Shown piece by piece: positions 1 to 23,243 of a stretch of DNA of 64,000 nucleotides. The position numbers were made by a program, and so were the translations under genes. A model generated the notes under the pieces. The model ran no database searches and had not been told where the DNA came from. It saw only the letters and a list, made by a program, of their open reading frames with translations. Source of the stretch: Actinomycetota bacterium (GTDB lineage: Bacteria > Actinomycetota > Thermoleophilia > RBG-16-64-13). Position 1 is the first letter of the stretch. Each line of letters begins with the position of its first letter. The stretch is taken from contig JAAYJE010000038.1 in NCBI GenBank assembly GCA_012523095.1, positions 40,244-104,243 on the forward strand. The letters are read 5' to 3'.

Positions 1-491
1 TGGACTATCGCCTGGATCTCAGGGACCGTGAGCGGCCGGATCATGTCTCGGTGGAAGTCGGCGGGAGTGGAGATGTTCACCGCGGACGCTCCTATGGGCG
101 GTCCCTCGTACGTAGCCGGATGGTTGTCGAACAGTGGGTTCTGCCAGGGACCGTCATGCTCCATCTGCAGGAATGTCGGGCACCCGTGGCTGTGGATCAT
201 GTCGACCAGGATCTTGATGCCGGGGATGTACTTATCGTCATCCATACGGTAGCGATAGTGCCAACGGCACCCCTGAGGGAAGTCCACCGTGGGAGCTTCA
301 ACCGAGATGATCCCCACCCCTCCGCGGGCCAGGGCATCGTAGAAGCCCATGGTGTTCTCGTTCATCGAGTCGTACTCGGTATCAAAGAACGTATGCATGC
401 CCGCGGCCGACTTGTAGAGACGATTGCGCGTCTTCACCTTACCGATCTGCCCTGGCTCGAGCAGCTTCGCGTACCTGCCTGGGTCGCTCAT
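1..491 (-). CDS. NADH:flavin oxidoreductase, Old Yellow Enzyme family; N-terminal part only, C-terminus beyond window start
   Basis: Minus-strand ATG at 489-491 preceded by GGAGGG. Manual translation MSDPGRYAKLLEPGQIGKVKTRNRLYKSAAGMHTFFDTEYDSMNENTMGFYDALARGGVGIISVE... matches the OYE TIM-barrel N-terminus. The frame runs off position 1, so it is absent from the ORF track. Confidence 0.6.
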   Translation of the reverse strand, partial: MSDPGRYAKLLEPGQIGKVKTRNRLYKSAAGMHTFFDTEYDSMNENTMGFYDALARGGVGIISVEAPTVDFPQGCRWHYRYRMDDDKYIPGIKILVDMIHSHGCPTFLQMEHDGPWQNPLFDNHPATYEGPPIGASAVNISTPADFHRDMIRPLTVPEIQAIV

Positions 492-574
492 ATGATCCGG
501 CCCTCCGTTCTTTCTGCTTTCGCGTGCCACTTCAGCGGCGCCGGCCTCCCGGCGTCATTTTTCCGTCCGGACCA

Positions 575-1516
575 TCAGACCGGCCCGAATGCTCCAATCT
601 CACTCAGATAGTCGAGCATCTTCAGGTACAGCTCATCGCGTTTCTTGAGGATCTCCACCTCGCTCCTGCCTTGATAATCGTAGATGCCACGCCCGCTCTT
701 GGCGCCGCAGTCCCCGCGTTCCACCCGCTCCTCCACGAACGAGTAGACCTTGCCCACGTTCTTCTGATAGGCCAGCAGCATGTCGAGGCCTTGGAAATCG
801 AAGGTCTGCATGACCCCGACGATCGGAAGCCGCACGCCCAGCGACGTCTTCACGGCCGTGTCGATCTCACCCGGCTCCACCAGACCTTCCTGGACCATGT
901 CCATGGCCGTCTCGCCAATGGCCCGCTGGATGCGGTTGACGATGAAGCCCGGGCCGAACTTCTTCATAGGCACCGGGCTCTTGCCGCAGACCTTCATGAG
1001 GGCCACGGTGAATTCCATGGTCTCGGGCGAGGTCCGCGGTCCCGGCACGACTTCGACCAGTGGGATGATGTGCGCCGGCGTGAAGAAGTGCGCGCACACG
1101 CCTCGAGGCTGCAATGCGTCCGGCAATAACTCGAAGATGTTGAGACTCGACGTGTTGCTGGCGATCACGGTCCGTTCAGGGCAGACGGCGGAGAGCTCAG
1201 CGTACAGTTCCCTCTTGGCGTCCTTGTTCTCGGCTATGGTCTCAAGGACGAAATCCGCATCCTTGGCGACATCCTTGACGTTCTGACTTGTCGTTATGCG
1301 GGCGATGGCCTCGTCTGCCACGGTTTGGGGGAGCGTGCCGTGTGCGACGAGAGTGGCGGAGTTGGCCCTCACCATCTTCATCGCCTTCTTCAACGTCTCC
1401 GCTTTGCGCGAGTACAGAGCCACCTCATACCCGGCGACGGCGAACATCTGAGCCACACCTGGGCCCATGGTGCCGGCGCCGAACACCGCTATCTTCTTGA
1501 CATCCTCGACTCTCAC
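575..1516 (-). CDS. 3-hydroxyacyl-CoA / 3-hydroxybutyryl-CoA dehydrogenase family protein (HBD-like), GTG start
   Basis: N-terminal Rossmann motif KKIAVFGAGTMGPGVAQ and C-terminal HCDH dimerisation region. AAAGGGG lies upstream of the GTG start. It is a paralog of 26931-27890. Confidence 0.8.
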   Translation of the reverse strand: MRVEDVKKIAVFGAGTMGPGVAQMFAVAGYEVALYSRKAETLKKAMKMVRANSATLVAHGTLPQTVADEAIARITTSQNVKDVAKDADFVLETIAENKDAKRELYAELSAVCPERTVIASNTSSLNIFELLPDALQPRGVCAHFFTPAHIIPLVEVVPGPRTSPETMEFTVALMKVCGKSPVPMKKFGPGFIVNRIQRAIGETAMDMVQEGLVEPGEIDTAVKTSLGVRLPIVGVMQTFDFQGLDMLLAYQKNVGKVYSFVEERVERGDCGAKSGRGIYDYQGRSEVEILKKRDELYLKMLDYLSEIGAFGPV

Positions 1517-1572
1517 CGACAGCCCCTTTCAGACCTCGCTTCTCCAGTCGCTCCCGTCCCGGGCAGCGGCGC

Positions 1573-2352
1573 CTAGGCCGTGCAGCTCCGGCCGCCGTCC
1601 ACATACACGACCTGCCCGGTCATGTAGTCAGAGGCCGCCGAGGCCAGGTAGATGCAGGTGCCCATGAGTTCCTCCGGCTCAGCGACCCGTCCGATGGGGT
1701 GCAGGGCGGTCGCCCCGGCCAGGACCTCGGGCGGCAGCGCGGCCTTCATGCCGGGGGTGAAGATCACCGACGGGCCGATGGCGTTGACGTTGACGCCGTG
1801 CTTGGCCCACTCGTACGCCAGCATGCGGGTGAGATTGCCGACGGCGGCTTTGCTGGCGCAGTAACCGACATTGCCCGCGAGCGGGACGCCGCGGTCGCCG
1901 GCCACCGAGCCGATGTTGATGATCTTGCCTTTCTTCTTCTCGAGCATGACCTTGCCGAATTCGCGACAGCAAAGCATGATGCTCTTCACATTGCTCTCGA
2001 AGAGCGTGTCCCAACTGCCTAAGGTCTGGTTCTCAAAGGGCTCTTTGATGTTCTGCCCCTGCGAGTTCACCAGGATGTCCACCGTGCCCATGGCCGCCAC
2101 GATCTCCCCGACCGCGTTCTTCACACCGGCCTCGTCGGTGGCGTCCATCCGGAAGGCCTTCACCTTCGTGGAGACTTCCGGATCGGCCGCAAGTTCACCG
2201 GCCACCACCTGCAGCTTCCCCAGATCGCGGCTGGCGAGAGCCACGTCCGCCCCTTGCCTGGCCAGCCCGAGCGCCAAGGCCTTTCCGATTCCTCCGCCTC
2301 CGCCGACGACCACTGCCACCTTGCCGTCGAGCCTGAAAAGGTCTCCCATCAT
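1573..2352 (-). CDS. SDR family oxidoreductase
   Basis: GKVAVVVGGGGGIGKA glycine-rich motif and YCASKAAV catalytic YxxxK. Start moved to the MMGDLFRL ATG at 2352; the track ORF extends to 2415 and would abut the upstream gene stop. Confidence 0.75.
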   Translation of the reverse strand: MMGDLFRLDGKVAVVVGGGGGIGKALALGLARQGADVALASRDLGKLQVVAGELAADPEVSTKVKAFRMDATDEAGVKNAVGEIVAAMGTVDILVNSQGQNIKEPFENQTLGSWDTLFESNVKSIMLCCREFGKVMLEKKKGKIINIGSVAGDRGVPLAGNVGYCASKAAVGNLTRMLAYEWAKHGVNVNAIGPSVIFTPGMKAALPPEVLAGATALHPIGRVAEPEELMGTCIYLASAASDYMTGQVVYVDGGRSCTA

Positions 2353-2416
2353 CGCCTCGTTTCGTCTTGCTCTGACATTCTCAGCTCCGTGCGCGGCTCG
2401 TTCCATCGTAGCCATC

Positions 2417-3661
2417 TCACCTGTAGGGCAACCAGCACTCCATCAACTCGTCGATGGGCCACAGGCTGAGCCGCTCGTAGCCGTCCTTGGTCACTAGGAT
2501 GTTCTCCTCCAGCCGCACACCGAACTTACCGCCCTTCTTGCCCGCGTAGGTCTCGACGGCCAGGCACATCCCTTCCCTGAAGGTCTGTTCGGGCACCCCG
2601 GCTACCTGGTTCATACGGTTGAAGAACGGCCGGTCGTGCAGAGTCAGACCCAGGCCGTGGCCGATGGCATAGGGGCCCACCTCAGCCCAGGTGTCGTGCC
2701 CCCAGTACTGGGGAGAGTCGGGCCACTTGTCGAGGAGCTGCCAGTCGGTCGAGCCGTCCTTGATGGTGCTCATGCCGTCATACAACATGGCCCGGCACTC
2801 CTCGTAGACGTCCTTCTGCTCTTGACTGGCCTTGCCCACGGAGAACGTACGGTAGACACACGACTTGTAGCCTTGGTAAGAGGCGCCGTCCACATCGATG
2901 TAGACCAAGTCGCCCACCTGCAGAGGCTTATCCGTGAACGACCACCCATAGGGGTTGGTATTGTGACCGGAACAGCAGACCAGGTCTTCGGTGTGGTCGT
3001 CCCCTTCCTCGTAGAGGGTCTTGATACCGATGGCGACCAGATCGCACTCCCGGATTCCCGGGCGGATGGCGTCCACGATCGCGGCAAAGGCCTTCTCGGA
3101 GTGTGCGCAGGTGATGCGCATCAATTCGATCTCATCCACCGTCTTGATCATGCGGGCAAGGTCCATGAAGGGTTTGGCGTGGACGACCTCCACGCCCCGC
3201 TTCTTGAAAGCCTCTGCGTAGATGTAGGAGAGCGTGGTGCCGTCGATGCCCAGCGGCTCCTTCTCCACGCCGTACTCCACCATGAAGCCGTAGATCTGGT
3301 CCACGACGTTCTGAACGACCTTGTCGTCGGGCGTGAAGGCCGCGATCTTCGCGATGCCGGCCGGAGCATGGATACGGCCCCCCATCCAGGGCATCCGCTG
3401 GATCAAGCCCTCTTGGTCGTTGCCTCCGATGATGTGCGGATCGCCGTTACGCGCACAGAAGCAGAACTGGGCCTCCAGAGGACGGTTGGGAGTGGTGATG
3501 TAGTAGCCCGTCATGTACCGGACATTGGCTTCGTCCCAGGTGACGATGGCTCCGAGCCCCGCCTTGTTGATCTCGGCCTTCGCACGCTGCAGGCGCTCCG
3601 CCCGTAGACGAGGATAGTTGACCCGTTCTTCGTAGTCGACCGCGTATTTTCCGAGTACCAT
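2417..3661 (-). CDS. M24 family metallohydrolase (creatinase/prolidase fold)
   Basis: Creatinase N-domain plus pita-bread catalytic domain with metal-ligand Asp/His/Glu pattern (..[18 protein letters not shown].., ..LHDRPFFNR..). ATG at 3661 follows GGAGGAG; the track start at 3664 is GTG. Confidence 0.75.
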
Positions 3662-3714
3662 CACTCCTCCTACCGTGTCGTCTATTCCGTCGTCTTAGGA
3701 CCCTGCGCGCGCTC

Positions 3715-4893
3715 CTACAGTCTTTCGAAGATCGCGGCGCACCCGATGCCGCCCGCCGCGCACATGCTGACCAATCCGTACCGGTTCTTGCGGCGTTTCA
3801 TCTCGTGCAACAGTGTCGCGGTGAGCTTGGCTCCGGTCGCACCCAGAGGATGGCCCAGAGCGATGGCTCCACCGTTCACGTTCAAGATCTCGCGGTCGAG
3901 GCCCAGTTCGCGCATGCAGTAGACAGACTGGCTGGCGAAGGCCTCGTTGAGCTCTATGAGCTCGATCTGGTCCATGGTGAGACCTGCGAGCTTCAGCACC
4001 TTCGGGATGGCGAACACCGGGCCGATGCCCATCACGGCCGGGTCGCAGCCGGCGGCGGCGAACGCTACGAAACGGGCCAGGGGCTCCAGCCCAAGCGACT
4101 CCGCCTTCTCCGCGCTCATCACGACCACGGCAGCGGCGCCGTCGCTGGTCTGCGACGAGTTGCCCGCCGTGACCGTGCCGTCCTTCTTGAAGACCGGCCT
4201 CAACTTGGAGAGGACTTCGACCGTGCTGCCCGGCCGCGGACCTTCGTCGGTGGTCGTTGTGGTGATCTTCTCGACCACCGTGCCGTCAGGGCCGGGGAGC
4301 CTGCGCTTGATCTCCACCGGCACGATCTCGTCGTCGAACGTGCCGTTCTCGATAGCCGCCAGAGCGCGGCGCTGGCTTTCGGCCGCGAACACATCCTGCT
4401 CTTCACGAGTGACGCTGAAGCGTTCGGCCACGTTCTCGGCCGTGATGCCCATACCGGCGTATACACCGGGGTTGACCTTCTGCATGTCCCAGCTGCTGAT
4501 CTGTTTGTTGCCGCCACCGGGCACCCGGGACATGCTCTCGATGCCCGCTGCAAGCACCACCTCGACCTGGCCCGACATGACGGCCTGGGCCGCATAAACG
4601 ACGGACTGCAGCCCGGAGGCGCAGAACCGAGTGAGGGTGACGCCCGGCACCGTGTCGGGGATGCCGGCGAGCAGGGCGTAGTTCCTCGCGCAGTTCAGCC
4701 CCTGTTCAGCCTCGGGGAAGGCGCAGCCCATGATGACGTCGTCTATCTCCGCCGGGTCGAGCCCGGGCGCGCGCTCCAGCGCCGCGCGGATGGACGTGAC
4801 CGAGAGGTGCTCCGGCTGGATGGTCCTGAACATCCCCCTCGGGGCTTTCCCGACCGGCGTACGTACCGCCGATACTACGACTGCTTCTATCAT
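3715..4893 (-). CDS. acetyl-CoA C-acetyltransferase (thiolase II)
   Basis: [13 protein letters not shown]-terminus, active-site Cys region [12 protein letters not shown] and C-terminal [21 protein letters not shown]. Confidence 0.85.
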
Positions 4894-4918
4894 GAAGGGT
4901 CTCCTTCGCTCCTCGCGC

Positions 4919-7297
4919 CTAGTTCCGGAGGGGCTTCCCGGTCCTCAGCATGTGTTGCATCCGCTCGATGCTCTTGGCCGTGCGGCACACCTCTAGGAAG
5001 GCCTTGCGCTCGAGGTCGAGGAGATACTGCTCGTCGACCTCTGCGTTGATCTCCACCTCGCCGCCCGACAGGACCCGGCCCACCATCATCGACAGATAGT
5101 GGTCGTGGTCGGAGATAAAGTCGCCGCTGCGGGCGTTATCGAGGATCCAACGGAAGTTCCCCATGCCGTCCACACCCATCACCTGCACCGTCACCGGCGC
5201 CGGCGTCTGCCAGCCCGACTCGAGCATCCCTAGGGCCACCTGCTTCGCCGCATGGATGAGGCCGTCGCGGTTCATAGTCACGCCGTCCCCGGGGCGAAGG
5301 TAACCGAGGTCGAACGCCTCCCAGGCCGAGGAGCTGACCTTAGCCATAGTGATGGCCTGGAATGAGCGCTGCATGATGAACCAGGCCCAGTTGACACCCT
5401 GAGCGGGGGCCGTGGTGCGGAACACCGCCTCCTTCATCCCTCCGGCCGCCGGCACAAGCCCTACGCCGGTCTCCACCAGCCCCATGTTGACGTCGGCGTG
5501 GGCCTGCACACGATGGCAATGCAGGCAGACCTCAAGGCCGCCGCCCAGTACCCTGCCGAACGGCGCCGCCACTATGGGGATAGGCGCGTACTTCATGGCC
5601 ATGCTCGTGCGTTGGGCCGTGCGGACCAGGTGCTCGATGCCGTCCCAGTCCTCAGCGGCGATCTTGTCGAGCATCAGCCTTATGTCTGCTCCGCCCGAGA
5701 AGTGTGCGCCTTGGTTACCGATGACCAGAGCGTCATAGGCGTCTCCGGCGTTCTCGATGGCCTTCAGAATGAAGAGCTGCACCCCTTCTCCCACGGTGTT
5801 GGCCTTGGTGTGGAACTCGATGCAGGCCACCCGGTCGCCCAGATCGACGAGACCGGCATGCTCGTTCTCCTCGAGCGTCCTGCCGTTCGCCTTGAGATCG
5901 GCGAGGTTGATCACACGCTTCCGCGCTGCAAGCGGCTTGTGTCCCTCCTGACCCGGTCCCCACACTTCGAGAGCGCCCGCCTCCTTCTTGTAGAACGAGG
6001 GAGCCTCGGTGGCCGCCAGCTGTAGCACCCATTCGGGAACGGCCCGGCCCTCCGCCTTCATCCGCTCGACGGTCTCCTTGACTCCGAGGGCGTCCCACAG
6101 CTCGAAGGGGCCCAGGTCCCAGGCATAGCCCCAACGCATGGACCGGTCGATCTGAGCGATGTCGGAGCAGATCTCGGGGATACGGTTGGCAGCGTAAACG
6201 AAGGTGGCGGCTAGAAGGTCCCACCCAAAACGAGCGGCCGCGTCGTCGAACGAGATGAACTTCCGCACGCGCGCTACCGGGTCGGAGATCTTGTTCGCCT
6301 CCGTGAGGCTCTCGTACTGCGGGTCCTGCCAGGGTCGGTATTCCAGCGTATTGGGATCGATGCACAGAGTGCGCTTCTCTCTGAAGAAGCTCCCGCCGGT
6401 CTTCTCGCCCAGATAGCCGCGGTCGACCATGTCCAGGATCCACTGAGGAAGCTTCCACTGCTCGCGCATCTCGTCGCCCACGGCGGTCTCGTAGTGGCTC
6501 TCGACCGCGTAGGCCAGCACATCGGTGCCGGCCAGGTTAGACGTGCCATAGGTGGCGGTCACCGAGCGGGCCAGGGCCCGGCCGCTGGCCGCGTCGACGT
6601 CCTCGATGGTGAGGCCGTACTTCTCCTGTTGATTGATCGCGTAAACGGTCGAGAAGATGCCGATGCGGTTGGCGACGAAGTTCGGGGTGTCCTCGCTCAG
6701 CACCACTCCCTTTCCCAGTCGAAGCTCGGCAAACTCCTGCAGACCTTTCACAACGGCCTTATCGGTATGACGGCCCGGGATCACTTCCAGGAGGTACATG
6801 AAGCGGGGCGGGAAGAAGAAGTGACTGCCCAGAAAACGCCTCTTCACGTCGTCGGGGAGGACCGATGCCATCGCGTTGACCGAAAGTCCTGAAGAGTTCG
6901 TCGACACGATAGTCTTAGGGCCGATGTACCCGGCCACCCGGCTCAGAAGGCTCTGTTTCACGTCGAGCCTCTCCACCACAGCTTCCACTACCCAATCCAC
7001 ATCCGCAAGCTTCGCCAGGTCGTCATCGAGGTTCCCCGGAGTGAGCAGATGGGCGCGGCTTGGGTGTGCGAAGGCGGCGGGGCGCCCCTTGAGAGCTGTG
7101 GAGATCGCAGCCTTGGCCAGACGGTTCCGCACGCCCGGGTCATCCAACCCCAGACCGAGCTTCTTCTCGTCGTCGTTCAGCTCCGTCGGAGCCAGATCGA
7201 GGAGCAGTGTGGGTATGCCGGCGTTCGCCAGATGGGCCGCAACCGCGGTACCCATGCGGCCCGCTCCGAGAACAGCCGCCCTTCGGATCACTAACAT
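4919..7297 (-). CDS. FadN-type bifunctional 3-hydroxyacyl-CoA dehydrogenase (N-terminal) / enoyl-CoA hydratase (C-terminal)
   Basis: N-terminal NAD-binding AVLGAGRMGTAVAAHLA followed by HCDH C-domains. C-terminal crotonase fold (..GGGLEVCLHCHRVQAHADVNMGLVETGVGLVPAAGG..). 792 aa with the same domain order as Bacillus FadN. GGAGG RBS overlaps the TetR stop. Confidence 0.85.
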   Translation of the reverse strand: MLVIRRAAVLGAGRMGTAVAAHLANAGIPTLLLDLAPTELNDDEKKLGLGLDDPGVRNRLAKAAISTALKGRPAAFAHPSRAHLLTPGNLDDDLAKLADVDWVVEAVVERLDVKQSLLSRVAGYIGPKTIVSTNSSGLSVNAMASVLPDDVKRRFLGSHFFFPPRFMYLLEVIPGRHTDKAVVKGLQEFAELRLGKGVVLSEDTPNFVANRIGIFSTVYAINQQEKYGLTIEDVDAASGRALARSVTATYGTSNLAGTDVLAYAVESHYETAVGDEMREQWKLPQWILDMVDRGYLGEKTGGSFFREKRTLCIDPNTLEYRPWQDPQYESLTEANKISDPVARVRKFISFDDAAARFGWDLLAATFVYAANRIPEICSDIAQIDRSMRWGYAWDLGPFELWDALGVKETVERMKAEGRAVPEWVLQLAATEAPSFYKKEAGALEVWGPGQEGHKPLAARKRVINLADLKANGRTLEENEHAGLVDLGDRVACIEFHTKANTVGEGVQLFILKAIENAGDAYDALVIGNQGAHFSGGADIRLMLDKIAAEDWDGIEHLVRTAQRTSMAMKYAPIPIVAAPFGRVLGGGLEVCLHCHRVQAHADVNMGLVETGVGLVPAAGGMKEAVFRTTAPAQGVNWAWFIMQRSFQAITMAKVSSSAWEAFDLGYLRPGDGVTMNRDGLIHAAKQVALGMLESGWQTPAPVTVQVMGVDGMGNFRWILDNARSGDFISDHDHYLSMMVGRVLSGGEVEINAEVDEQYLLDLERKAFLEVCRTAKSIERMQHMLRTGKPLRN

Positions 7298-7300
7298 ACT

Positions 7301-7992
7301 CTAGTCCTCCCCAGAATTATCTCCGCGATCCAGACCAAGACCCCGGAAGATGAAACCGATTAGAAACTCAACCGTCGACTCGACATCTTCGGGGCCGGAC
7401 AGCTTAAGGTTCCAGCCCCTAAGAACAAGGAATAGACACACGTACGAGACCAGATTCGCAGCCAACTCAGATTCCCGCCCCCGCAGCTGGTGTCCGGGGA
7501 TCAGCGAAAGAAGGTGCCGATAGAAGCCCACGACGTTCCGGTCGTCCAACTCGAGCACCTTTCGGAGGTGCTCCTTGTCGAGGTACTTGCTCTCGGTGAA
7601 TATGAACTGGTAGAGCTGCCGATTCGCGGAAAGATGCTTCATGGTGATCCGCAGCCCATGCTCCAACTTGGCCACAGGGTCGGTGATCTCCTCGATACCG
7701 GCGTCGACCAAACTCTGATTCCACAACTCCTGACTGTGACGGTGCATGAGGTACAGGATGTCGTCTTTTGAGGAGATGTAGTGGTACAGCTGACCCATGG
7801 ACATCCCGCACGCGGAGGCGATATCGCGGATGGAGGTCTTGCCGAAGCCCTTCTCGAAGAGCACGCTGCTCGCTCCTTCCACGATGATGCGCTGCTTCAT
7901 CTCGGTCAACTCGCGGTCGGTCGAGGCCGCCTGCAGAGATCCCTCCGCAACCCTCTGCAGCATCTCATCAAGCTGGTGTTTGGTGCTCGTCA
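7301..7992 (-). CDS. TetR/AcrR family transcriptional regulator
   Basis: HTH at ..KTSIRDIASACGMSMGQLYHYISSKDDIL.. The track ORF extends to 8287 but would overlap the SnoaL-like gene. The ATG at 7992 (MTSTKHQ...) gives a typical ~230 aa TetR. Confidence 0.75.
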
Positions 7993-8093
7993 TGAAGGTC
8001 GCGCACTCCTTGCGTCCGATATAGTGTTGTCCGCGGCCGGCCTCTCCCGGCCTGATGAACCGATCTGCCGGAAGAGCGGATGACCGCCTTCGA

Positions 8094-8142
8094 TAGAGCG
8101 CTCGCTCTAACCATTCTGGCAGGTATTCCGGCCCGGTGTCAA
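8094..8142 (-). promoter_or_regulatory. Predicted sigma70-type promoter (TTGACA-N17-CAGAAT on minus strand) with a 16-bp palindromic operator TAGAGCG-N2-CGCTCTA just downstream; copy 1
   Basis: Plus-strand tgtcaa 8137-8142 (-35), attctg 8113-8118 (-10), palindrome tagagcgctcgctcta 8094-8109. Near-identical architecture to copy 2 at 10740-10786. Confidence 0.45.
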
Positions 8143-8180: not shown

Positions 8181-8687
8181 TCACCAGAGACCGCTTGGCG
8201 GGCCGCCACCCGGCAGTCCATGGATTTCGCTCCAACGCATGCAGGCGATCTTCCATCTGCCGTTCTCGCGTACAAAATCGTTGTCATAGCGGCCCTGGAC
8301 CCAGAACATCGACTGGCCGGTCCTCTTGTAGAAGTACATCATGAAGAGCATGAAGTCGCCCTTGGCGTTGTCTCCCTCAACGGTGATGATGGGATTCACG
8401 CAGACGTCGCCTTCATTGCCCGCGTGCGTCTGAGACAGCTCTTCTTTCAGCCATCGCCGGATATTCTCTTTGCCTCTCACAGGCTCATGCAGGTACACGT
8501 CCACCTGGGCGTCTTCGGCGAAGCACTCGGCGCACTCGTCCCACTCCATGAGCATGAGCGCATTGAGGTACCGGTACTGTACTTCCTGGATCTCCCTGAC
8601 ATCTGCGGTCTCGCGGGCAAGCGCCGACAGCCTGCCGACCCTCTCTTCGAGTTCGGCGATCCGCGCTTCCAATCCCGGCTTGTCCAT
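8181..8687 (-). CDS. SnoaL-like / NTF2-fold (ketosteroid-isomerase-like) protein
   Basis: 168 aa. ATG with AAGGAG RBS. NTF2-like pattern (..EDAQVDVYLHEPVRGKENIRRWL.. ..ITVEGDNAKGDFM..). Confidence 0.55.
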   Translation of the reverse strand: MDKPGLEARIAELEERVGRLSALARETADVREIQEVQYRYLNALMLMEWDECAECFAEDAQVDVYLHEPVRGKENIRRWLKEELSQTHAGNEGDVCVNPIITVEGDNAKGDFMLFMMYFYKRTGQSMFWVQGRYDNDFVRENGRWKIACMRWSEIHGLPGGGPPSGLW

Positions 8688-8857: not shown

Positions 8858-9913
8858 CTACGTCGTCAGCAGTATTTTGACGGCCCCCTCGAGACGCTTG
8901 TCAAAGATCTCGTACGCCCGGATAACGTCGTCTAAGCTCATCCGATGGGTCACTACTGGGGAAACGTCGAGCTCTCCATCTTCGATCACCTTCACGAGCT
9001 TAGGCATGGCACCGAGATCACCCATGCCCATGGCCACCGTCACGTTCCTGGCCTGCATGCGGGGCGCGTTGATCTTGATAGGCGCTTGGAAGGCACCGAC
9101 CACAGCGACGACCCCACCTGGAGCAGCGACCCGGATGGCGTTCTCCAGGCTCTCCTCTTTGCCTACCGCTTCGACGATGTAGTCCGCGCCCCAGCCGTCC
9201 GTGTGTTGCCGCACCGCTTTGCGGACGTCTTCGGTTCCGGCGGCATCGATGGTCACGTCCGCGCCCAGCCTCTCGGCGAGGGCCAACCGCTCGGCGCGAT
9301 TGCCCACCGCGATGATTTTGGCGGGGCGGAACAGCTTGGCGGAGGCCACGGAGCAGAGACCCACCGGACCGAGGCCGAACACCACGACATGGTCCCCCTC
9401 ACGCACGCCGCGCCCGCCCGGAGAAAGCCCGGCAACCGCCGAATACCCGGTCGGGAGGATGTCTCCCGCGAAGATGATGCGATCGTCCGGTGCAGTGACA
9501 TGCTGCAGCGTGTTGTCGGCGAAGGGCACCCGCACGTAGTCGGCCTGCGCCCCAGGCAGATCGCCCAGTAGGGGCCCGTGGCCGAAGGTCGCTCCGCGCT
9601 CGCACGCGCTATAGAGGCCCCGCCTGCAGGCCCGACACCGGCCACACCAGACGGCCGCGGCACCCACCACCCGATCCCCCGGTTTGAACCTACCGACCGC
9701 CCCGCCCACCTCGTGCACCACACCACAGAACTCATGCCCGATGATCCGCCCGGGTTCCATCTTGGGAAGAAGGCCGTGCACGATATGGGTGTCGCTGCCG
9801 CAGATACTGGCCGTCGTGACCCGGACGACGGCGTCTTCGGGATCCTGGACGACCGGCTCCGGCACGTCCTCCAGCCGGATATCATTCGGGCCTTCGTATA
9901 CGACGGCTCTCAT
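8858..9913 (-). CDS. zinc-dependent alcohol dehydrogenase (MDR family)
   Basis: MRAVVYEGPNDIRL, CGSDTHIV, GHEFCGVVHEVG zinc motifs, and a Rossmann VVVFGLGPVGL segment. The ATG at 9913 overlaps the upstream SDR stop (ATGA). Confidence 0.8.
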   Translation of the reverse strand: MRAVVYEGPNDIRLEDVPEPVVQDPEDAVVRVTTASICGSDTHIVHGLLPKMEPGRIIGHEFCGVVHEVGGAVGRFKPGDRVVGAAAVWCGRCRACRRGLYSACERGATFGHGPLLGDLPGAQADYVRVPFADNTLQHVTAPDDRIIFAGDILPTGYSAVAGLSPGGRGVREGDHVVVFGLGPVGLCSVASAKLFRPAKIIAVGNRAERLALAERLGADVTIDAAGTEDVRKAVRQHTDGWGADYIVEAVGKEESLENAIRVAAPGGVVAVVGAFQAPIKINAPRMQARNVTVAMGMGDLGAMPKLVKVIEDGELDVSPVVTHRMSLDDVIRAYEIFDKRLEGAVKILLTT

Positions 9914-10683
9914 CCCTCTTCGACCTCGAGACCGTGCCAGCAAACGAGCTCGTCGTCAAAGGCCACGCAACCCGTGACCCCATTCGCATCCTGCTTGGCG
10001 AGGAACATGACGCATGTCACCATAGATGCCGGGGACTTCCAGCCGATCTGGTCCTCGGGCTTAGCCCACATCCGCATCCCCTCGGTGCTCACCACACCCC
10101 ACGGTTTGACGGCGTTGACTGCGATGTTGTTCTTGCCTTCTTCAGCCGCGAGCGCCCAGGTGAACCGGTCAAGACCCGCCTTTGAGACGGCATAGACGGC
10201 GCTGTAGCCCACGGTGCCGCTACCGCGTTCGGCGCCCGCGTTGGAGGCGATGTTGACGATGCTCCCGCCACCCTGCCCGCGCATGCTTGGTATGACCGCT
10301 TTGGAGCACAGGAAGGGTCCCGTCGTGTTGACTTTGAGCACGACCTCCCAACGTTTCAAGGGCATCTCAACGCACGGGAACGGGAAGTCGATGGCCGCGT
10401 TGTTCACCAGGATGTCGATGCGTCCCCACTTGGCCAGAGTCGCCTCGACCATGGCGTTGACACTCTCCTCGCTGGTCACGTCACAACGCACGGCGATGGC
10501 CTCGCCGCCCAGCTTCTCGATGTCGGCCACCGTCTCGCCGATGGTGCCCGGCAGCTTCTCGTGCGGCTGGACCTCGCTGCGGGCCGCCACGACCACCTTT
10601 ACACCCTCTCTCGCGAACCTCAGGGCAACAGCTTTTCCGATACCCCGGCTGGCTCCGGTGACGATAGCTACCTTGCCACGCAT
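9910..10683 (-). CDS. SDR family oxidoreductase
   Basis: MRGKVAIVTGASRGIGKA start, NNAA, and YAVSKAG catalytic motif. GGAGG RBS. Confidence 0.8.
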   Translation of the reverse strand: MRGKVAIVTGASRGIGKAVALRFAREGVKVVVAARSEVQPHEKLPGTIGETVADIEKLGGEAIAVRCDVTSEESVNAMVEATLAKWGRIDILVNNAAIDFPFPCVEMPLKRWEVVLKVNTTGPFLCSKAVIPSMRGQGGGSIVNIASNAGAERGSGTVGYSAVYAVSKAGLDRFTWALAAEEGKNNIAVNAVKPWGVVSTEGMRMWAKPEDQIGWKSPASMVTCVMFLAKQDANGVTGCVAFDDELVCWHGLEVEEG

Positions 10684-10786: not shown

Positions 10787-10897
10787 GGACTGAAGAGCCG
10801 TAGTCTCAACCATGATGGACGCGCCGGACGCCGCGATGAGCATCGCTTTTCGGGTAGAATCCAGGCCACCGGCACTTCGACCACAGGTGAACACTCG

Positions 10898-11621
10898 CAT
10901 GAAGTACTACAACTACAGCATATCCCCAGGGATCTTCGCACGCTTCCCCGGTTACGTCCGCGGCGTGGTGATAGCCCACGAGGTCAAGAACGGCCCGTCC
11001 CCGGCCGAACTGGTGGAGATGATGCGCGAAGCGGAAGAGTCGGTGCGGGCGAGGGTCGATCCGGAACAGATCGCCGAGGAACCACGGATCAAGTCCTGGC
11101 GCGAGGCGTACCGAGCCTTCGGCGCCAAACCCTCAGAATTCCGCTCCTCAGTGGAGGCCATGGCAAGGCGGGCTCTGCGGGGCGACCGGCTTCCCAGCAT
11201 CAGTGCGCTGGTCGACCTCGGTAACGTCATGTCGCTGCGGCACCTGATACCGGCCGGGGCCCATGCCATCGACCTCTTGCAGGGAGACATAGAGCTCCGT
11301 TTTGCCAACGGCGATGAAGACTTCGTGGCCTTCGGCTCCGAGAAGTTGGAACACCCTCTACCGGGTGAGGTGGTCTTCGTCGAGGGCGGCACCAACACGG
11401 TGTTGACCAGACGCTGGACCTGGCGCCAGGGCAACCACACCCTGACCCTCCCCGACACAACCGCCATCGAGTTCAATGTCGACGGGTTACCGCCTGTCAC
11501 GCGCGAGGAGATCGAGGCCGCCTGCGCCGAAGTGGCGGAGTTGATCCGGCGGTTCTGCGGAGGTAGCAGCCGCATCGACTACCTGACGGCGGAGACCCCA
11601 CGCATCTCCCTGGCACCCTGA
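10898..11621 (+). CDS. B3/B4 tRNA-binding-domain protein (COG3382-like stand-alone PheT B3/4 domain)
   Basis: ATG at 10898 with AGGTGA RBS. Motifs MKYYNY...GVVIAHEVKN...KSWREAYRAFGAKPSEFRSSVEAMARR...LVDLGNV resemble stand-alone B3/4 proteins. Confidence 0.5.
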
Positions 11622-11662: not shown

Positions 11663-12859
11663 CTAAACCGCCTCCACCACCGTGGCGATGCCCTGGCCGC
11701 CGGCGATGCACAGCGTTGCCAGCCCGTAGCGCGTGCCCCGCTTCTGCATCTCATGGAGCAAGGTCGTGAACACCCTCGCCCCGGAGCAGCCTATAGGATG
11801 GCCGAGCGCGATGGCTCCTCCGTTGACGTTGAGGACGTCCATGCGGTCTCCGATGCCTAGCTCTTTGATGACCGCCAACGACTGCGCCGCGAACGCTTCG
11901 TTCAGTTCAATCAGACCCATATCGTCAAAGGTGAGGCCCGCGCGTTTCAGCGCCAAGCGCGAGGACGGCGCCGGCCCGAGACCCATGATCTCTGGAGGCA
12001 CGCCCGCGACGCCCATGCCTCGTATCGCCACCATGGGTTCGATACCGCGACGACCCGCCTCCTTGGCCGACATGACCACAGTGCAGCCGGCCCCGTCGTT
12101 GCGGCCCGAAGAATTGCCCGCGGTCACCTGCCCGTCCTTCTTGAAGACGGCCGGCAGTGCCGCCAGCCCCTCCAGAGTGCTCCTACGTGGATGCTCGTCG
12201 GTATCAAAGACGAGAGGATCCTTCTTCCGCTGCGGAACGTGTACCGCTACGATCTCGCCCTTGAAGCGACCTGACTCGATAGCGGCGAACGCCCGCTCCT
12301 GGCTCTGCAATGCGAAGGCATCCGATTCTTCGCGGGTGATGCCGTACTTCTCCCCCAGGTTCTCGGCCGTCAGCCCCATGGTCAGGTCGCCGTACACCTC
12401 GTAAGGTTGAGAGCGGGGCTGGCTTTCGGTGTTCGAGTCGAGCAGCACCGCGTTGCCGGCCCGGTACCCGTAGCGCGCGTCCCTGAGGTAGTAAGGAGCC
12501 CTGCTCATGCTCTCTACGCCACCCGCGACCACGATGTCGGCCTCGCCGATCATGATACTGGCCGCCGCGTTGTGGACAGATTGAAGACCCGAGCCACACT
12601 GCCGCATGACCGTGTAGGCGGGCACCTCCACAGGCAGCCCGGCCTTGAGCGCCGCCACACGCGCCAGATTGGCGGCGTCCGCACTCTGCTTGGCCTGGCC
12701 CATGATGACTTCGTCCACTTCGCCAGGTTCTACCTCGGCCCGTGCCAAGGCTTCCTGTATGACCAGCTTGGCGAGATCCTCGGGCTCCATGTCCTTGAGC
12801 CCTCCACCCAACCTGCCTACCGCCGTTCTCACGGCACTGACGATGACCACTTCGTCCAT
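11663..12859 (-). CDS. acetyl-CoA C-acyltransferase (thiolase)
   Basis: MDEVVIVSAVRTAVGR start, Cys region TVMRQCGSGLQS, and C-terminal GGQGIATVVE. ATG at 12859 with GGGAAGG RBS; the track start at 12895 is GTG. Confidence 0.85.
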   Translation of the reverse strand: MDEVVIVSAVRTAVGRLGGGLKDMEPEDLAKLVIQEALARAEVEPGEVDEVIMGQAKQSADAANLARVAALKAGLPVEVPAYTVMRQCGSGLQSVHNAAASIMIGEADIVVAGGVESMSRAPYYLRDARYGYRAGNAVLLDSNTESQPRSQPYEVYGDLTMGLTAENLGEKYGITREESDAFALQSQERAFAAIESGRFKGEIVAVHVPQRKKDPLVFDTDEHPRRSTLEGLAALPAVFKKDGQVTAGNSSGRNDGAGCTVVMSAKEAGRRGIEPMVAIRGMGVAGVPPEIMGLGPAPSSRLALKRAGLTFDDMGLIELNEAFAAQSLAVIKELGIGDRMDVLNVNGGAIALGHPIGCSGARVFTTLLHEMQKRGTRYGLATLCIAGGQGIATVVEAV

Positions 12860-13009
12860 GAGACCTTCCCTGTCTATCCGCCAAGAGTTCAACACGGCCG
12901 GCCGTAGAGGACTCCACCGCCGGCCGAGACCGCCCCGACCGTCAAAGGATCCCCGACGGCCGAGGCCATTCCAGCGGCCTGAGGATCGCTCCCCGACCGC
13001 TTCAGATCA

Positions 13010-13849
13010 TCAGTCGAACGGCTCCAGCACGATGCCGCCTAGATCGACGTCGGTATGCGTGAACACCTCGATGATCATCGACGCGTATCCGTCGCACTCG
13101 ATGTTCACACGGTAGTCCTTGTTCTTCTCCAAGCCGTCGAACTCGAAGTCCCCATAGTTGTCTGTGTGGGTCTCGAGCCTGATCCCCTCTCCCTCGAGAG
13201 TGACCCACACTCCTTCGGCGCACTCGTCAGGGACGTCACGCCGGATGACCTCACCGACCACGAAGCGTTTGGGGATGCCGACGTACTTGACCAGCGGAGA
13301 GGTATTGTACTCGGGATGAAGCGCCTCCGTATCGAGGGTCGCAACCAGCTTCGATATCTCGCTGTTCGGGTCGTCCAGGTCGCCGAAAACGAGAGCGCCG
13401 GTCGGACAGGCTTCTACGCACCGGGGTTGCTTCTCCCCCGCATCCAGCATGTGCGCACACAGGGTACATTTCTGGGGGATATCCAGTTCGGCGTTCCAGA
13501 AGACCACCCGGTAGGGACAAGCGTTCACTACCGCCTTCTGCCCCTTGGCCCTCACCGGGTCGATCATGACGACGCCGTCGTCGCGCCGGTATACGGCGTC
13601 GTCCAGGGCCACGGCGATACAAGGCGCCTCTTCGCAATGTAGGCACGGAATCGGCAGGTAGTCCACTTTAGGTTTGGGATAACTCCCGCGCTCGATCTCC
13701 TTGACCTGCATCCAGAACTGCCCCTCGAGAGGTTGGGGAGCCGAATAAGAGCCGTAGTCGTTGCCATAGTACTCGTCGCGGCACGCCAAGAAGCAGTTGT
13801 GGCAGCCACTGCACTTGGTCACGTCTATAAGCAAGCTAAGCCGCGCCAT
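13010..13849 (-). CDS. Molybdoenzyme small (beta) subunit of the pyrogallol-phloroglucinol transhydroxylase family, copy 1: three [4Fe-4S] motifs plus C-terminal beta-sandwich domain
   Basis: CSGCHNCFLAC, PCLHCEEAPC, CPYRVV and CTLCAH...CVEACPTGA Cys clusters. C-terminal ..NYGDFEFDGLEKNKDYRVNIECDGY...VDLGGIVL resembles the Pelobacter BthL C-domain. GGAGGG RBS inside the alpha gene end, 3-nt gap. Confidence 0.8.
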   Translation of the reverse strand: MARLSLLIDVTKCSGCHNCFLACRDEYYGNDYGSYSAPQPLEGQFWMQVKEIERGSYPKPKVDYLPIPCLHCEEAPCIAVALDDAVYRRDDGVVMIDPVRAKGQKAVVNACPYRVVFWNAELDIPQKCTLCAHMLDAGEKQPRCVEACPTGALVFGDLDDPNSEISKLVATLDTEALHPEYNTSPLVKYVGIPKRFVVGEVIRRDVPDECAEGVWVTLEGEGIRLETHTDNYGDFEFDGLEKNKDYRVNIECDGYASMIIEVFTHTDVDLGGIVLEPFD

Positions 13850-13852
13850 CTC

Positions 13853-16501: not shown

Positions 16502-17362
16502 ATGGTCCATTTGCAAGGCATGCGCTCGCCTGGAAGAGCGGCCCCGATCGACGGGAGAGATATGGCCGCGACGACAGCATCGCGAGATACCGATCCTTTC
16601 TCGGTCAGAGCGCTGGCCCGAGGCCTCTCCATTCTATGCCTTTTTGACGTGGACCACAGAGAGTGGACCATCGACGAGATGGTGGAGCGGACCGGGCTGG
16701 TTCGCATGACGGCCTACCGGATGGTGCGGACTCTGGAGTCCATGGCCTTCCTGGTGCGGGATTCCGCGACCAATCGCTACCGGCTCGGGCCGGCCATGTT
16801 GGCGCTCTGCTACGTCGCCGCCGATCAGTCGGAGTTCATCGCGGCGGCCCGACCTTTTCTCGAATCCCTCGTGGAGCAGACGGGAGAATCGGTCACTCTG
16901 GCCGTGGAGGTCGACGGGTTCCCCGTGTGTGTGGACATCATCAACACCACCCGTCCCTTCAAGCGCCAAACGGCCCCCGGCCGCATCCTCGGTGACATCG
17001 CGACGGTCCACGGAAAGATCTTCACCGCCTTCAAGTCGCCGGAGGAAAGAGAAGCGCTTCTCGCTCGGCCCCGCGCCAGGCGGACACCTCAGACCGTGAC
17101 CGACCGGGAGGTCATCCTGGCGGAGCTCGACCGGGTAGTCAAGGACGGCGTAGCCTACGATCTCGAAGGGTACTACCAGGGTCTGTGCGCGGTGGGCGCT
17201 CCGGTACGCGACCAGTTCGGAGCGGTCACGGCCTCAATCTCCGTGGTGGCTCCTGCGGGCCGCTTCGGTCCCGCCGAGAGCGCCGCTTTCGCGGAGGCCG
17301 TCACGGAGGCGGCCGGCGCCTTCTCCGCCTATCTGGGGTGGACCCCCCGAGCATCTACTTAG
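16502..17362 (+). CDS. IclR family transcriptional regulator
   Basis: N-terminal wHTH (..SVRALARGLSILCLFD...WTIDEMVERTGLVRMTAYRMVRTLESMAFL..) and C-terminal IclR effector domain. The start codon is uncertain; later Met at 16520 or 16562 are possible. Confidence 0.75.
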   Translation: MVHLQGMRSPGRAAPIDGRDMAATTASRDTDPFSVRALARGLSILCLFDVDHREWTIDEMVERTGLVRMTAYRMVRTLESMAFLVRDSATNRYRLGPAMLALCYVAADQSEFIAAARPFLESLVEQTGESVTLAVEVDGFPVCVDIINTTRPFKRQTAPGRILGDIATVHGKIFTAFKSPEEREALLARPRARRTPQTVTDREVILAELDRVVKDGVAYDLEGYYQGLCAVGAPVRDQFGAVTASISVVAPAGRFGPAESAAFAEAVTEAAGAFSAYLGWTPRAST

Positions 17363-20140: not shown

Positions 20141-20955
20141 AGGTCTTCGTCATCGATGTCGGCCTTTGTGTAGGCTGCTACGCCTGCCAGTTCGTCTGCA
20201 AGGACGAGCACGTGGGCAACGACTGGTCGCCGATCGCCAAGCCCCAGCCCGACACCGGCCAGTTCTGGATGCGGCTGGACGAACACATCCGCGGCACGGT
20301 CCCCAAGGTGGAGATGCATTACGTGCCGAACCCCTGCATGCACTGTGACGAGGCCCCCTGCATCCCGCCCTGCCCCATCGAGGGAGCCATCTATAAGCGC
20401 GACGACGGGCTGGTGATCATCGACTCGATGAAGTGTACGGGGTGTAGGTTATGTGTCGACGCCTGCCCCTACGACGCCATCTACTTCAACGACGACTTGA
20501 ATCTGGCCCAGAAGTGTACAGGCTGCGCCCATCTCCTCGACGGCGGTGAATGGATGGTCCCGCGCTGCGTCGACGCCTGTCCCACTGAGGCCATCAAGTT
20601 CGGTGAAGAGAGCGAGTTCGCTGCCGAGATAGCGAAGGCCGAAGTGCTGAAGCCCGAGCTGGGCCACAAACCGCGCGTCTATTACCTCAACATCCCGAAG
20701 AAGTTCATCGCGGGCACCGTATACGATCCGGTTGCTAAGGAGATCATCGAGGGCGCCACCTGCACGCTCACGAACGGCAACGACAAGGCCCTCACCGCCA
20801 CGACCGACGGCTTCGGCGACTTCTGGTTCCGGGGGCTCCCCGACGACGCCTCTTACAAGCTGAGCGTCTCGGCCCCGGGCTTCAGAACCAAGACGATGGA
20901 GGACATCCGCACCGAGAAAGACGTCAATCTAGGCGACATAGCGCTTGCCAAGTAA
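20137..20955 (+). CDS. Transhydroxylase-family small (beta) FeS subunit, copy 2
   Basis: ATG at 20137 overlaps the alpha stop (ATGA) with GGAGG 6 nt upstream; the track ORF starts earlier at 20116. Motifs MKVFVIDVGLCVGCYACQFVC, PCMHCDEAPC, CTGCRLCVDACPY, CTGCAH...CVDACPTEA, plus C-terminal GFGDFWFRGL...VNLGDIAL domain. Confidence 0.8.
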   Translation: MKVFVIDVGLCVGCYACQFVCKDEHVGNDWSPIAKPQPDTGQFWMRLDEHIRGTVPKVEMHYVPNPCMHCDEAPCIPPCPIEGAIYKRDDGLVIIDSMKCTGCRLCVDACPYDAIYFNDDLNLAQKCTGCAHLLDGGEWMVPRCVDACPTEAIKFGEESEFAAEIAKAEVLKPELGHKPRVYYLNIPKKFIAGTVYDPVAKEIIEGATCTLTNGNDKALTATTDGFGDFWFRGLPDDASYKLSVSAPGFRTKTMEDIRTEKDVNLGDIALAK

Positions 20956-23233: not shown

Positions 23234-23243
23234 TGCCGTCCCC

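Follow-up and report, generated by a model that had tools for sequence, protein, structure and literature searches.

A TetR-headed operon at the left end of the window

The stretch analysed here, referred to as the window, comprises 64,000 nucleotides (nt) of contig JAAYJE010000038.1 (positions 40,244 to 104,243; assembly GCA_012523095.1), has a G+C content of 62% and derives from an uncultured, apparently anaerobic member of the Actinomycetota that is Gaiellales/Thermoleophilia-like. Its left end carries a minus-strand operon with a gene for a protein of the M24 (creatinase-fold) family, which may act in anaerobic phloroglucinol breakdown as a second ring-opening enzyme, unrelated to the known one. 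Pfam and NCBIfam matches bear out the families that a preceding sequence-only reading had given to the seven minus-strand open reading frames (ORFs) at 1-7993, and likewise its statement that the M24 gene is the sole hydrolase-family gene among them, the MBL-fold hydrolase at 23244-24170 lying further off. The features of this region are (aa, amino acids):

3-491, minus strand, running off the left window edge: truncated Old Yellow Enzyme (OYE)/FadH-type flavoenzyme, N-terminal 163 aa (PF00724, 33 bits against a cut-off of 27)
537-556, GC-rich 8-bp hairpin, terminator-like on the plus strand only, in the 83-nt spacer from the HBD-like gene to the OYE gene
575-1516, minus strand: HBD-like dehydrogenase, HBD1, 313 aa, GTG start (PF02737, PF00725)
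1573-2415 (280 aa, first ATG) or 1573-2352 (259 aa, internal ATG), minus strand: classical SDR, SDR1 (PF13561, PF00106)
2417-3661/3664, minus strand: M24/creatinase-fold protein, 414 aa from the ATG at 3661 (PF00557, 128 bits; PF01321, 37 bits)
3715-4893, minus strand: thiolase, 392 aa (PF00108, PF02803; TIGR01930, 474 bits, above the cut-off of 240.55)
4919-7297, minus strand: FadN-type protein, 792 aa, with an N-terminal 3-hydroxyacyl-CoA dehydrogenase and a C-terminal enoyl-CoA hydratase (PF02737, PF00725, PF00378/PF16113)
7301-7993, minus strand: TetR-family regulator, 230 aa (PF00440), start context AAGGAG-N-ATG

The internal ATG of SDR1 at 2352 yields a protein of 259 aa, which is the length of its homologues. 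The FadN-type protein matches NF052272 (Staph_FadB) over its full length with 524 bits, below the cut-off of 999; judged by this match, it has the FadN/FadB architecture (about 790 aa in one chain) but is not a member of that equivalog. Gaps of 3 to 60 nt had been claimed for the operon, and the genes are indeed tightly packed, but the range does not hold, the measured distances being 3, 25, 53, 64 (or 1), 56 and 83 nt. The TetR stop codon lies 3 nt ahead of the FadN start, purine-rich ribosome-binding sites precede most of the seven starts, and the hairpin at 537-556 is followed by no T-run on the coding (minus) strand. The promoter placed earlier at about 8113-8142 is present as TTGACA-18-CAGAAT at 8142-8113 and is a plausible, putative promoter of the operon, but the frequency of such matches gives no above-chance signal (one found in 9 kb, against 1.6 expected from shuffled sequence). 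The palindrome TAGAGCG-AG-CGCTCTA also lies where it had been reported, at about 8094-8109, and is possibly a TetR operator.

The genes of the seven-gene unit stand as described, but not its extent, for same-strand synteny in relatives reaches upstream to 10683 and beyond the left window edge. What lies at 1-7993 is the core, headed by TetR, of a more extensive conserved block of catabolic genes (loci of other genomes carry L numbers), whose upstream portion in the window consists of:

8181-8687, minus strand: SnoaL_4 (NTF2-like) protein (PF13577, 83 bits); the same family precedes TetR in L001, L002 and L007
8858-9943, minus strand: Zn-dependent alcohol dehydrogenase (ADH), by family match
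9910-10683, minus strand: SDR, 65-77% identical to the corresponding SDRs of L006, L009 and L013

The SDR-ADH pair holds the same position in L001 and L002. On the other side, beyond the OYE gene, close relatives carry genes for a SnoaL_4 protein, an HpaB-family protein, an ADP-forming acyl-CoA synthetase and an ABC permease. The OYE at this position is of full length (701-704 aa) in the closest relatives, and over 157 aa the window fragment matches the 704-aa OYE of L007 with 81% identity. The Fe-S/FAD extension that had been raised for the missing part of the OYE does occur in this L007 orthologue, which has a CxxCxxC...C motif at residue 384 and GGGPAG (FAD/NAD(P)) at 427. The orthologues of 701-702 aa in L002, in which an FMN domain is combined with a Pyr_redox_2 domain, likewise have all three parts of such an enzyme (FMN TIM-barrel, 4Fe-4S motif and FAD/NAD(P) domain).

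The M24 protein and its metal site

The M24 protein belongs to a subfamily of proteins of about 414 aa (1,280 matches at E<=1e-20, the best 120 being 61-92% identical; identity range of the subfamily, 51-93%) whose source annotations read generic Xaa-Pro aminopeptidase or dipeptidase. Its hosts are Actinomycetota, Desulfobacterota, Spirochaetota, Candidatus Stahlbacteria and Promethearchaeota (Asgard) and, within the Firmicutes, Moorellaceae, Clostridium caldaquaticum and metagenome-assembled genomes (MAGs) of gut Oscillospiraceae/Eubacterium. The nearest relatives, at 86-93% identity, come from MAGs of uncultured Actinomycetota, Gaiellales and Thermoleophilia, in keeping with the 62% G+C of the window, those at 86-91% serving as window-type relatives in the comparison of loci; an exact-sequence look-up returned no identical entry on record.

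The metal site consists of D257, C269 (in place of Asp), H336, E371 and E386, residues kept in 176-180 of 180 homologues, with Cys269 in 179 and E386 in 176 of them. When compared with prolidase structures, D257, H336, E371, E386 and the second His, H343, align, and D220 of 1PV9 corresponds to Cys269, whereas the substrate-binding His of the prolidase PHG motif is a Tyr. As far as these alignments tell, the canonical five-ligand M24 site (Asp, Asp, His, Glu, Glu) is not intact, its second, bridging Asp being replaced by Cys. Every NCBIfam equivalog scores far below its cut-off, the best being DddP (NF043017, 95 bits against 600); the PepQ model gives 89 bits against 630. The comparison with creatinase and ectoine hydrolase (DoeA) that had been suggested shows that, judged by the curated cut-offs, the protein is a member of neither family (TIGR02993 and NF038259; 56 bits against 613 and 36 against 575).

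Domain matches to PF00557 and PF01321 give the protein a pita-bread catalytic domain and a creatinase-type N-terminal domain, an M24B-type architecture. Its AlphaFold2 model (pLDDT 88.5) retrieves prolidases, DddP, DoeA and creatinase with a Foldseek probability of 1.00, the template-modelling (TM) scores being 0.82 for DddP, 0.73-0.74 for DoeA, 0.61-0.73 for prolidases and 0.67-0.69 for creatinase; identity to the creatinase and DoeA structures is 16-18%. The dimethylsulfoniopropionate (DMSP) lyase DddP (PDB 4RZY/4S01, 4B28) is thus the best full-length fold match (the TM score being normalised to the query) and also the best full-length NCBIfam match, and it shares with our protein the two-domain layout and, probably, a small-molecule rather than peptide substrate. 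Identity to DddP is only 21-22%, however, the model score stays at the 95 bits mentioned, the M24 subfamily is characterised by Cys at the second Asp position, and neither the habitats of the subfamily (soil and sediment anaerobes) nor its gene neighbourhoods have a DMSP link. By sequence, the catalytic domain is most similar to prolidase/Xaa-Pro dipeptidase (for instance Pyrococcus furiosus, 1PV9; 98-118 bits), but the M24 protein differs in Cys269 and the Tyr, in a poorly aligning N-terminal domain and in catabolic rather than housekeeping gene neighbours. A separate 358-aa M24 gene adjoins efp in L003; the efp neighbourhood is the usual place of a housekeeping M24 peptidase, and the L003 gene looks like one. 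Because of the sub-cut-off peptidase scores, the altered metal site, the DddP-like fold and this separate efp-side M24, sequence and model point to an enzyme that acts on small molecules, is not a peptidase and has an altered set of metal ligands.

It is very improbable, in our judgement, that the protein is after all an ordinary Xaa-Pro peptidase, or an amidino- or amidohydrolase of the creatinase/ectoine-hydrolase type, that is co-located with a beta-oxidation operon or that acts on a nitrogen-containing substrate whose beta-keto acid goes to a Kce-like BKACE. The source labels, the retention of four of the five M24 metal ligands together with an HxxxxxxH(D/E) motif, the higher scores of M24-linked BKACEs on the 3-keto-5-aminohexanoate cleavage (Kce) model than on the TAL model, and the resemblance of TetR, FadN and thiolase alone to a generic beta-oxidation operon would fit such an enzyme. 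They are countered by scores far below all NCBIfam peptidase, creatinase and DoeA cut-offs, by the exchange of the bridging Asp for Cys and of the PHG His for Tyr, by the efp-side M24 of L003, and by neighbourhoods that share specific parts with a genuine phloroglucinol cluster (L165, see below) and show no recurrent aminotransferase, ammonia-lyase or urease-type gene.

Gene neighbourhoods and the proposed ring opening

Our genome scan confirmed 111 relatives, 80 of whose loci are listed; neighbours were counted at 79 genome loci, co-occurrence was assessed by tblastn, and flanks were counted at 54 loci with at least 3 kb on each side, taking genes within 6 kb. The immediate neighbour of M24 is a DUF362 gene at about 40 of the 79 loci and an SDR gene of the SDR1/cluster-B type (cluster B of the window is described below) at about 17, and only the second copy in L064 has both. 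A neighbour-joining tree of M24 does not separate the SDR-linked from the DUF362-linked genes, which are intermingled; there the window clade is sister to the DUF362-linked L019/L020 and the SDR-linked L030/L038, and the DUF362-linked L072 is sister to the SDR-linked L079/L082. Because they are almost mutually exclusive as neighbours and interleave on the tree, the two partners look interchangeable. Within 6 kb of M24, the 54 loci contain an HBD-like dehydrogenase in 29 cases, an HpaB-family protein and a thiolase in 16 each, an OYE-FAD enzyme in 15, FadN in 13 and BKACE in 10, and the HBD-like gene type lies at 1.5 kb or less from M24 in many loci. A TetR gene stands ahead of M24 in most loci of other phyla too, and one operon, TetR-M24-DUF362-HBD-BKACE-CoA-transferase A/B, is recurrent; a FadL/TodX-type channel is encoded in the L084 operon and a TRAP transporter in that of L086.

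DUF362 (PF04015, about 420-440 aa, C-terminal Cys motifs) and M24 form the most conserved gene pair, often with nothing else kept nearby, in L019-L053, L062-L068, L072-L073, L077, L080, L084-L086 and others, including Asgard (Promethearchaeota) contigs. As to function, the searchable literature says of DUF362 only that its Pfam clan also includes DUF2088, the LarA family, and a phmmer search of PDB (E<=1) gave no homologue with a solved structure.

PMC10470551 describes dihydrophloroglucinol cyclohydrolase (DPGC) of Clostridium scatologenes (CsDPGC) as an Mn2+-dependent enzyme of the cyclase family, related to isatin hydrolase, with a kcat of about 1 per s and a KM of about 0.2 mM, for which attack of a metal hydroxide on the carbonyl and retro-Claisen C-C cleavage are proposed. 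The same source orders the pathway as phloroglucinol reductase (PGR, an SDR), DPGC, TfD (HBD family) and TAL (BKACE). DPGC converts dihydrophloroglucinol into (S)-3-hydroxy-5-oxohexanoate, TfD is the dehydrogenase of this acid, and TAL is a 3,5-dioxohexanoate:acetyl-CoA transferase. Kinship of the M24 protein with this published cyclohydrolase, which the sequence-only reading had offered for comparison, is refuted: DPGC is a PF04199 cyclase, the M24 protein matches PF00557 and PF01321 only, and the two have no homology. Since the published DPGC belongs to the PF04199 family, M24 can at most be its analogue.

A metagenome scan seeded with BKACE recovered a genuine phloroglucinol cluster, L165 (3302-20901), in the order DUF362, HpaB-like, SDR, DPGC, cupin, TfD, BKACE, TatD-like and two transhydroxylase-like Mo enzymes. 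The DPGC encoded there shares 81.7% identity with CsDPGC and the TfD 49.5% with that of C. scatologenes (CsTfD); on the TAL model, where the cut-off is 430, the BKACE attains 417 bits. The accessory genes of L165 (DUF362, HpaB-family, cupin, TatD-like and the two Mo enzymes) were not found mentioned in the portions of PMC10470551 consulted. With the partners in M24 clusters, the cluster shares SDRs that are 43-45% identical, a cupin at 62% and DUF362 at 55-62%. By these sequence comparisons, M24 clusters and DPGC clusters draw on a common set of parts. L165 carrying both DUF362 and an SDR, the idea that DUF362 is a mere substitute for an SDR phloroglucinol reductase is weakened.

The likeness extends to gene order. 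In the window the order is thiolase-M24-SDR-HBD, so that M24 lies in a DPGC-type context (beside an SDR and an HBD-family gene, with BKACE or thiolase), and in the Firmicute loci L079 (Moorellaceae MAG) and L082 (Neomoorella sulfitireducens) it is cupin-SDR-M24-HBD-BKACE-thiolase, to be compared with SDR-DPGC-cupin-TfD-BKACE; as read from these alignments of gene families, M24 occupies the DPGC slot in the Firmicute operons. Like that of DPGC, the gene of M24, a predicted metal-dependent hydrolase, adjoins those of an SDR and a dehydrogenase of the HBD family and is followed by BKACE, thiolase and CoA-transferase genes, and the chemistry proposed for it (metal-hydroxide attack followed by retro-Claisen cleavage) is the same. 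Its fold and family, on the other hand, are unrelated to those of DPGC, and the window operon has FadN and thiolase where the DPGC pathway has BKACE. Genes of the TfD-like type (47-51% identical to CsTfD) occur near M24 at five loci, at distances of 1.4-3.3 kb in L064, L066, L068 (directly beside DUF362-M24) and L069 and of about 9 kb in L055, and AthL-like transhydroxylase genes lie some 3-10 kb from M24 in L018, L057, L064, L082 and the window. The L079/L082 operons are flanked by genes for a glycyl-radical enzyme and its activase, OYE-FAD, crotonase, Hbd and an HpaB-family protein, to which Neomoorella adds a transhydroxylase-like enzyme. The glycyl-radical enzyme of L082 (L082:3525-6964, with activase, about 3 kb upstream of cupin-SDR-M24-HBD-BKACE) is of the dehydratase type (TIGR01774, 686 bits; below all substrate-specific equivalogs), and homologous ORFs occupy the same position in L079 (L079:3270-6649).

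SDR1 is 84-85% identical to the M24-adjacent SDRs of relatives, 47-49% to those of Firmicutes, 43% to the SDR flanking the L165 DPGC and 42% to the window SDR at 25202-25990, to which the Firmicute M24-adjacent SDRs are 51-55% identical. SDR1 and the L165 SDR have the same profile of PDB matches, with 1VL8 on top and 5G4K at 115-128 bits. This profile is uninformative for a PGR assignment, no entry being labelled PGR and 5G4K, presumably a PGR, ranking in the middle for all SDRs tested, including the DPGC-adjacent one. HBD1 is approximately 35% identical to CsTfD, a query read from a scanned supplement, and 36% to Hbd. It has the S-x-G-x-R-L-P insertion of TfD enzymes, which Hbd (4KUH) does not have, and is probably a beta-hydroxy-acid rather than an acyl-CoA dehydrogenase as judged by sequence; the Arg of the insertion is assumed to bind the free carboxylate. 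A carnitine-related role, which the resemblance of the Firmicute HBDs to carnitine/gulonate dehydrogenases would suggest, is rejected, scores being 174-209 bits against a cut-off of 414 and betaine-handling genes absent.

Further to the right, the window contains additional catabolic genes:

13010-16402, minus strand, and 17489-20955, plus strand: two paralogous pyrogallol-transhydroxylase-like molybdoenzymes, 849 and 883 aa, AhtL-like first domain
22418-23263, minus strand: SDR of cluster B (22418-27890)
23244-24170, minus strand: MBL-fold hydrolase of cluster B
24322-25155, minus strand: IclR regulator of cluster B
25202-25990, minus strand: SDR of cluster B
26068-26922, minus strand: BKACE of cluster B
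26931-27890, minus strand: HBD-like dehydrogenase of cluster B

Each molybdoenzyme is accompanied by a Fer4_11/CarboxypepD_reg Fe-S beta subunit, and an IclR gene (16502-17362) sits between the two divergent sets. The second GTG-initiated HBD-like gene that had been noted at 26931-27890 exists, and the earlier placement of the operon in an anaerobic island of the phloroglucinol/trihydroxybenzene type is borne out by the two transhydroxylase-like Mo enzymes and the HBD-BKACE-SDR set, so that the operon very probably belongs to the phloroglucinol/trihydroxybenzene gene pool. The BKACE of cluster B scores 209 bits on the TAL model NF053538 (cut-off 430); its nearest relatives, in L087 and L090 (54-58% identity), both have a PF04199 cyclase gene directly upstream, in the order cyclase-BKACE-SDR, which L090 continues with cupin-HBD-CoA-transferase. 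Cluster B has no cyclase-type ring hydrolase, and tblastn with CsDPGC (E<=1e-3) found no PF04199/DPGC homologue in the whole window. That the window has no such homologue, and that cluster B is without the cyclase gene carried by its nearest relatives, supports M24 as the window's ring hydrolase.

From sequence and context we infer a role of the M24 subfamily in this pathway, and tentatively favour, by analogy with DPGC, the hydrolytic opening of a reduced, phloroglucinol-type cyclic 1,3-dione as its reaction. The earlier proposal of M24 as ring-opening candidate stands in so far as comparative genomics puts an analogue into the ring-hydrolase slot; its substrate may be a related dione instead. 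In the route that we propose, the SDR (DUF362 in other lineages) would reduce the keto tautomer of a phloroglucinol-type ring to a 5-hydroxy-cyclohexane-1,3-dione of the dihydrophloroglucinol type, possibly substituted. A metal-bound hydroxide of M24 would then attack a ring carbonyl, and collapse of the tetrahedral intermediate by retro-Claisen C-C hydrolysis would yield a 3-hydroxy-5-oxo acid, which the HBD-like enzyme would oxidize to a beta-keto acid. CoA activation, for which an ADP-forming acyl-CoA synthetase is encoded just beyond the window edge in relatives, would be followed by conversion to acetoacetyl-CoA and acetyl-CoA by the FadN-type enzyme and the thiolase, a thiolytic route in the style of Pelobacter rather than a BKACE route. 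The Pelobacter acidigallici pathway reportedly includes steps of CoA transfer and thiolysis. The OYE/FadH-type enzyme and the SnoaL proteins would likely act on an enone upstream or in a side branch, possibly the keto tautomer of resorcinol or a chalcone. TetR is the probable repressor of the operon, with the palindrome that immediately follows the putative -10 hexamer as its site.

The likeness to P. acidigallici, which degrades phloroglucinol via triacetic acid (Brune & Schink 1992, as cited in PMC10470551), is one of enzyme logic only: reduction, hydrolytic ring opening, oxidation, CoA activation and thiolysis match the set of SDR, hydrolase, HBD-like enzyme, CoA ligase or transferase and thiolase, and the pyrogallol-transhydroxylase-like enzymes of the window also fit, but no genes of that pathway were found in the searchable literature and no Pelobacter is among the 80 listed of the 111 relatives. 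The sequence-only reading had M24 swapped for BKACE. This is ruled out, as M24 and BKACE occur together in the same operons of other genomes; no BKACE gene lies within 1-7993, and if anything stands in for it there, it is FadN plus thiolase.

Several observations weigh against M24 as the ring-opening counterpart of DPGC. The MAG LaPlata bin-3933 has, besides a window-type M24 cluster (L014, 88% identical), a genuine DPGC on contig L057 that is 70.7% identical to CsDPGC, with genes for an M24 paralogue and DUF362 at a distance of 6 kb, and Clostridium caldaquaticum has a divergent cyclase gene 5 kb from M24. Because both hydrolase families coexist in one genome, their substrates would be related but distinct, at least in some lineages. 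Many M24-DUF362 pairs, Asgard and several deltaproteobacterial ones among them, have no HBD, BKACE or thiolase gene within 7 kb, most of them with 10 kb of flank, and M24 is found in none of the 80 BKACE-seeded loci. The TRAP transporter of the L086 operon suggests a carboxylate substrate. The M24-linked BKACEs score 179-240 bits on the TAL model (cut-off 430), closer to the Kce model and below all cut-offs, so that, by their sequences, M24-linked HBD and BKACE appear to be paralogues rather than orthologues of TfD and TAL. The role of the SDR as phloroglucinol reductase is drawn, by analogy, only from its position in L165. The searchable literature, which leaves out subscription-only papers, contains neither a tie of M24 or DUF362 to this pathway, nor a function for the M24 subfamily, nor a cyclohexanedione hydrolase in this pathway.

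The coexistence of the two hydrolases would be expected if M24 performed the same chemistry on another dione, canonical DPGC elsewhere taking dihydrophloroglucinol and M24, with SDR, DUF362 or OYE, a related ring, an explanation that we consider unlikely. Candidate rings are dihydroresorcinol (1,3-cyclohexanedione, with the OYE/FadH-type enzyme as resorcinol reductase), reduced hydroxyhydroquinone and a substituted or carboxylated phloroglucinol, and the HpaB-family protein, FadN and thiolase would beta-oxidize the resulting oxo-acid. Besides the joint presence of M24 and DPGC in one MAG, 6 kb apart in L057, the distinct subfamilies of the M24-linked HBD and BKACE speak in this direction, together with the recurrence of OYE-FAD and HpaB-family genes near M24 in Actinomycetota and Firmicutes and the TRAP transporter (L086) and FadL/TodX-type channel (L084). 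The reductive resorcinol route, which PMC10470551 presents as reduction by a reductase and then hydrolytic cleavage of the ring, has moreover no genes named there or assigned in the searchable literature. The beta-hydroxy-acid dehydrogenase next to M24, on the contrary, fits a 5-hydroxy-1,3-dione, whereas on chemical reasoning the products of 1,3-cyclohexanedione and reduced hydroxyhydroquinone would be without the 3-hydroxyl; M24 stands exactly in the DPGC slot in Firmicutes, and TfD-like genes occur near M24 at the five loci given above. The 11-kb region of L057 (6018-17035) is arranged as MFS-M24 paralogue and CitMHS-DUF362-TetR-thiolase, with DPGC and a transhydroxylase-like gene placed divergently.

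That M24 performs another hydrolytic step of the same pathway is improbable. It would in that case cleave an acylphloroglucinol or dihydrochalcone, as an analogue of phloretin hydrolase, or reopen a lactone such as triacetic acid lactone, and opening of the ring would fall to a different protein, for instance the MBL-fold hydrolase, the cupin or a cyclase not linked to the operon. In the minimal operons TetR-M24-DUF362-HBD-BKACE-CoA-transferase, however, M24 is the only candidate for a hydrolase, the cupin accompanies DPGC in L165 and therefore does not replace it, and between SDR and HBD the operons of Firmicutes carry neither an OYE nor a SnoaL gene; these observations stand against OYE-FAD and SnoaL genes that flank the operon in relatives, recalling the enoate reductase and isomerase that precede phloretin hydrolysis (Fig. 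S1 of PMC10470551), and homologues of the MBL-fold hydrolase (66-69% identical) a few kb from M24 paralogues in L064 and L068. The MBL-fold hydrolase itself, which gives a weak match to the "Vmh family", is by sequence another candidate hydrolase of the pathway.

Returning to ring opening by M24, the type of pathway is already known, and it is the Cys-containing M24 subfamily, its DUF362 partner and the placement in the ring-hydrolase slot that appear undescribed. Phloroglucinol is the funnel intermediate of anaerobic flavonoid and tannin breakdown, and genome surveys recognise the capacity to degrade it by the PGR-DPGC-TfD-TAL genes. If M24 were a second, non-homologous ring opener, such surveys would miss many degraders, among which there could be Actinomycetota of soil and sediment, sulfate reducers, gut Oscillospiraceae and perhaps Asgard archaea, and C-C hydrolysis at a Cys-containing metal site would be a new reaction type for the pita-bread M24 fold. 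It is tempting to go further and regard M24(Cys) with DUF362, or with an SDR instead, as an unrecognised and widespread two-enzyme module of phenolic ring opening in anaerobes, in which a reductase, Fe-S/ferredoxin-linked or NAD(P)H-linked, makes the cyclic 1,3-dione and the pita-bread enzyme, with its Asp-Cys-His-Glu-Glu site, cleaves the C-C bond. This generalisation is rather doubtful; if true, it would concern Actinomycetota, Desulfobacterota, Spirochaetota, gut Firmicutes and Asgard archaea, could explain some of the reductive resorcinol/hydroxyhydroquinone routes, for which gene assignments were not found, and a second phloroglucinol route, and would give a first functional handle on the DUF362 family.

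Other genes of the window

Just upstream of the cyclase-BKACE-SDR cluster of L087, which has one of the nearest relatives of the cluster B BKACE, lies an arylsulfotransferase (ASST) gene (L087:3403-4821), which hints at sulfated phenols as a feed of that pathway. Between the operon block and the Mo enzymes of the window are a B3/4-domain protein (10812-11621, plus strand) and a second thiolase of 410 aa (11663-12895, minus strand) that is 50-54% identical to the thiolases located by M24 paralogues in L057, L064, L066 and L069. Adjoining cluster B, the plus strand at 28243-32282 encodes a Fer4 protein, an NrfD-type membrane subunit and a molybdopterin oxidoreductase of 746 aa, resembling a membrane-bound complex of the Psr/Phs type. 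It is followed on the minus strand (32969-39146) by genes for an MFS transporter, a POR gamma-like subunit, a 632-aa 2-oxoacid:ferredoxin oxidoreductase dependent on thiamine pyrophosphate (indolepyruvate type) and an ADP-forming acyl-CoA synthetase, a set typical of strict anaerobes; this synthetase and the one that relatives encode downstream of OYE belong to one family. The CotH kinase-like, VTC-domain and Cthe_2159 carbohydrate-binding-domain proteins at 44062-49156 (plus strand) are unrelated to the aromatic island.

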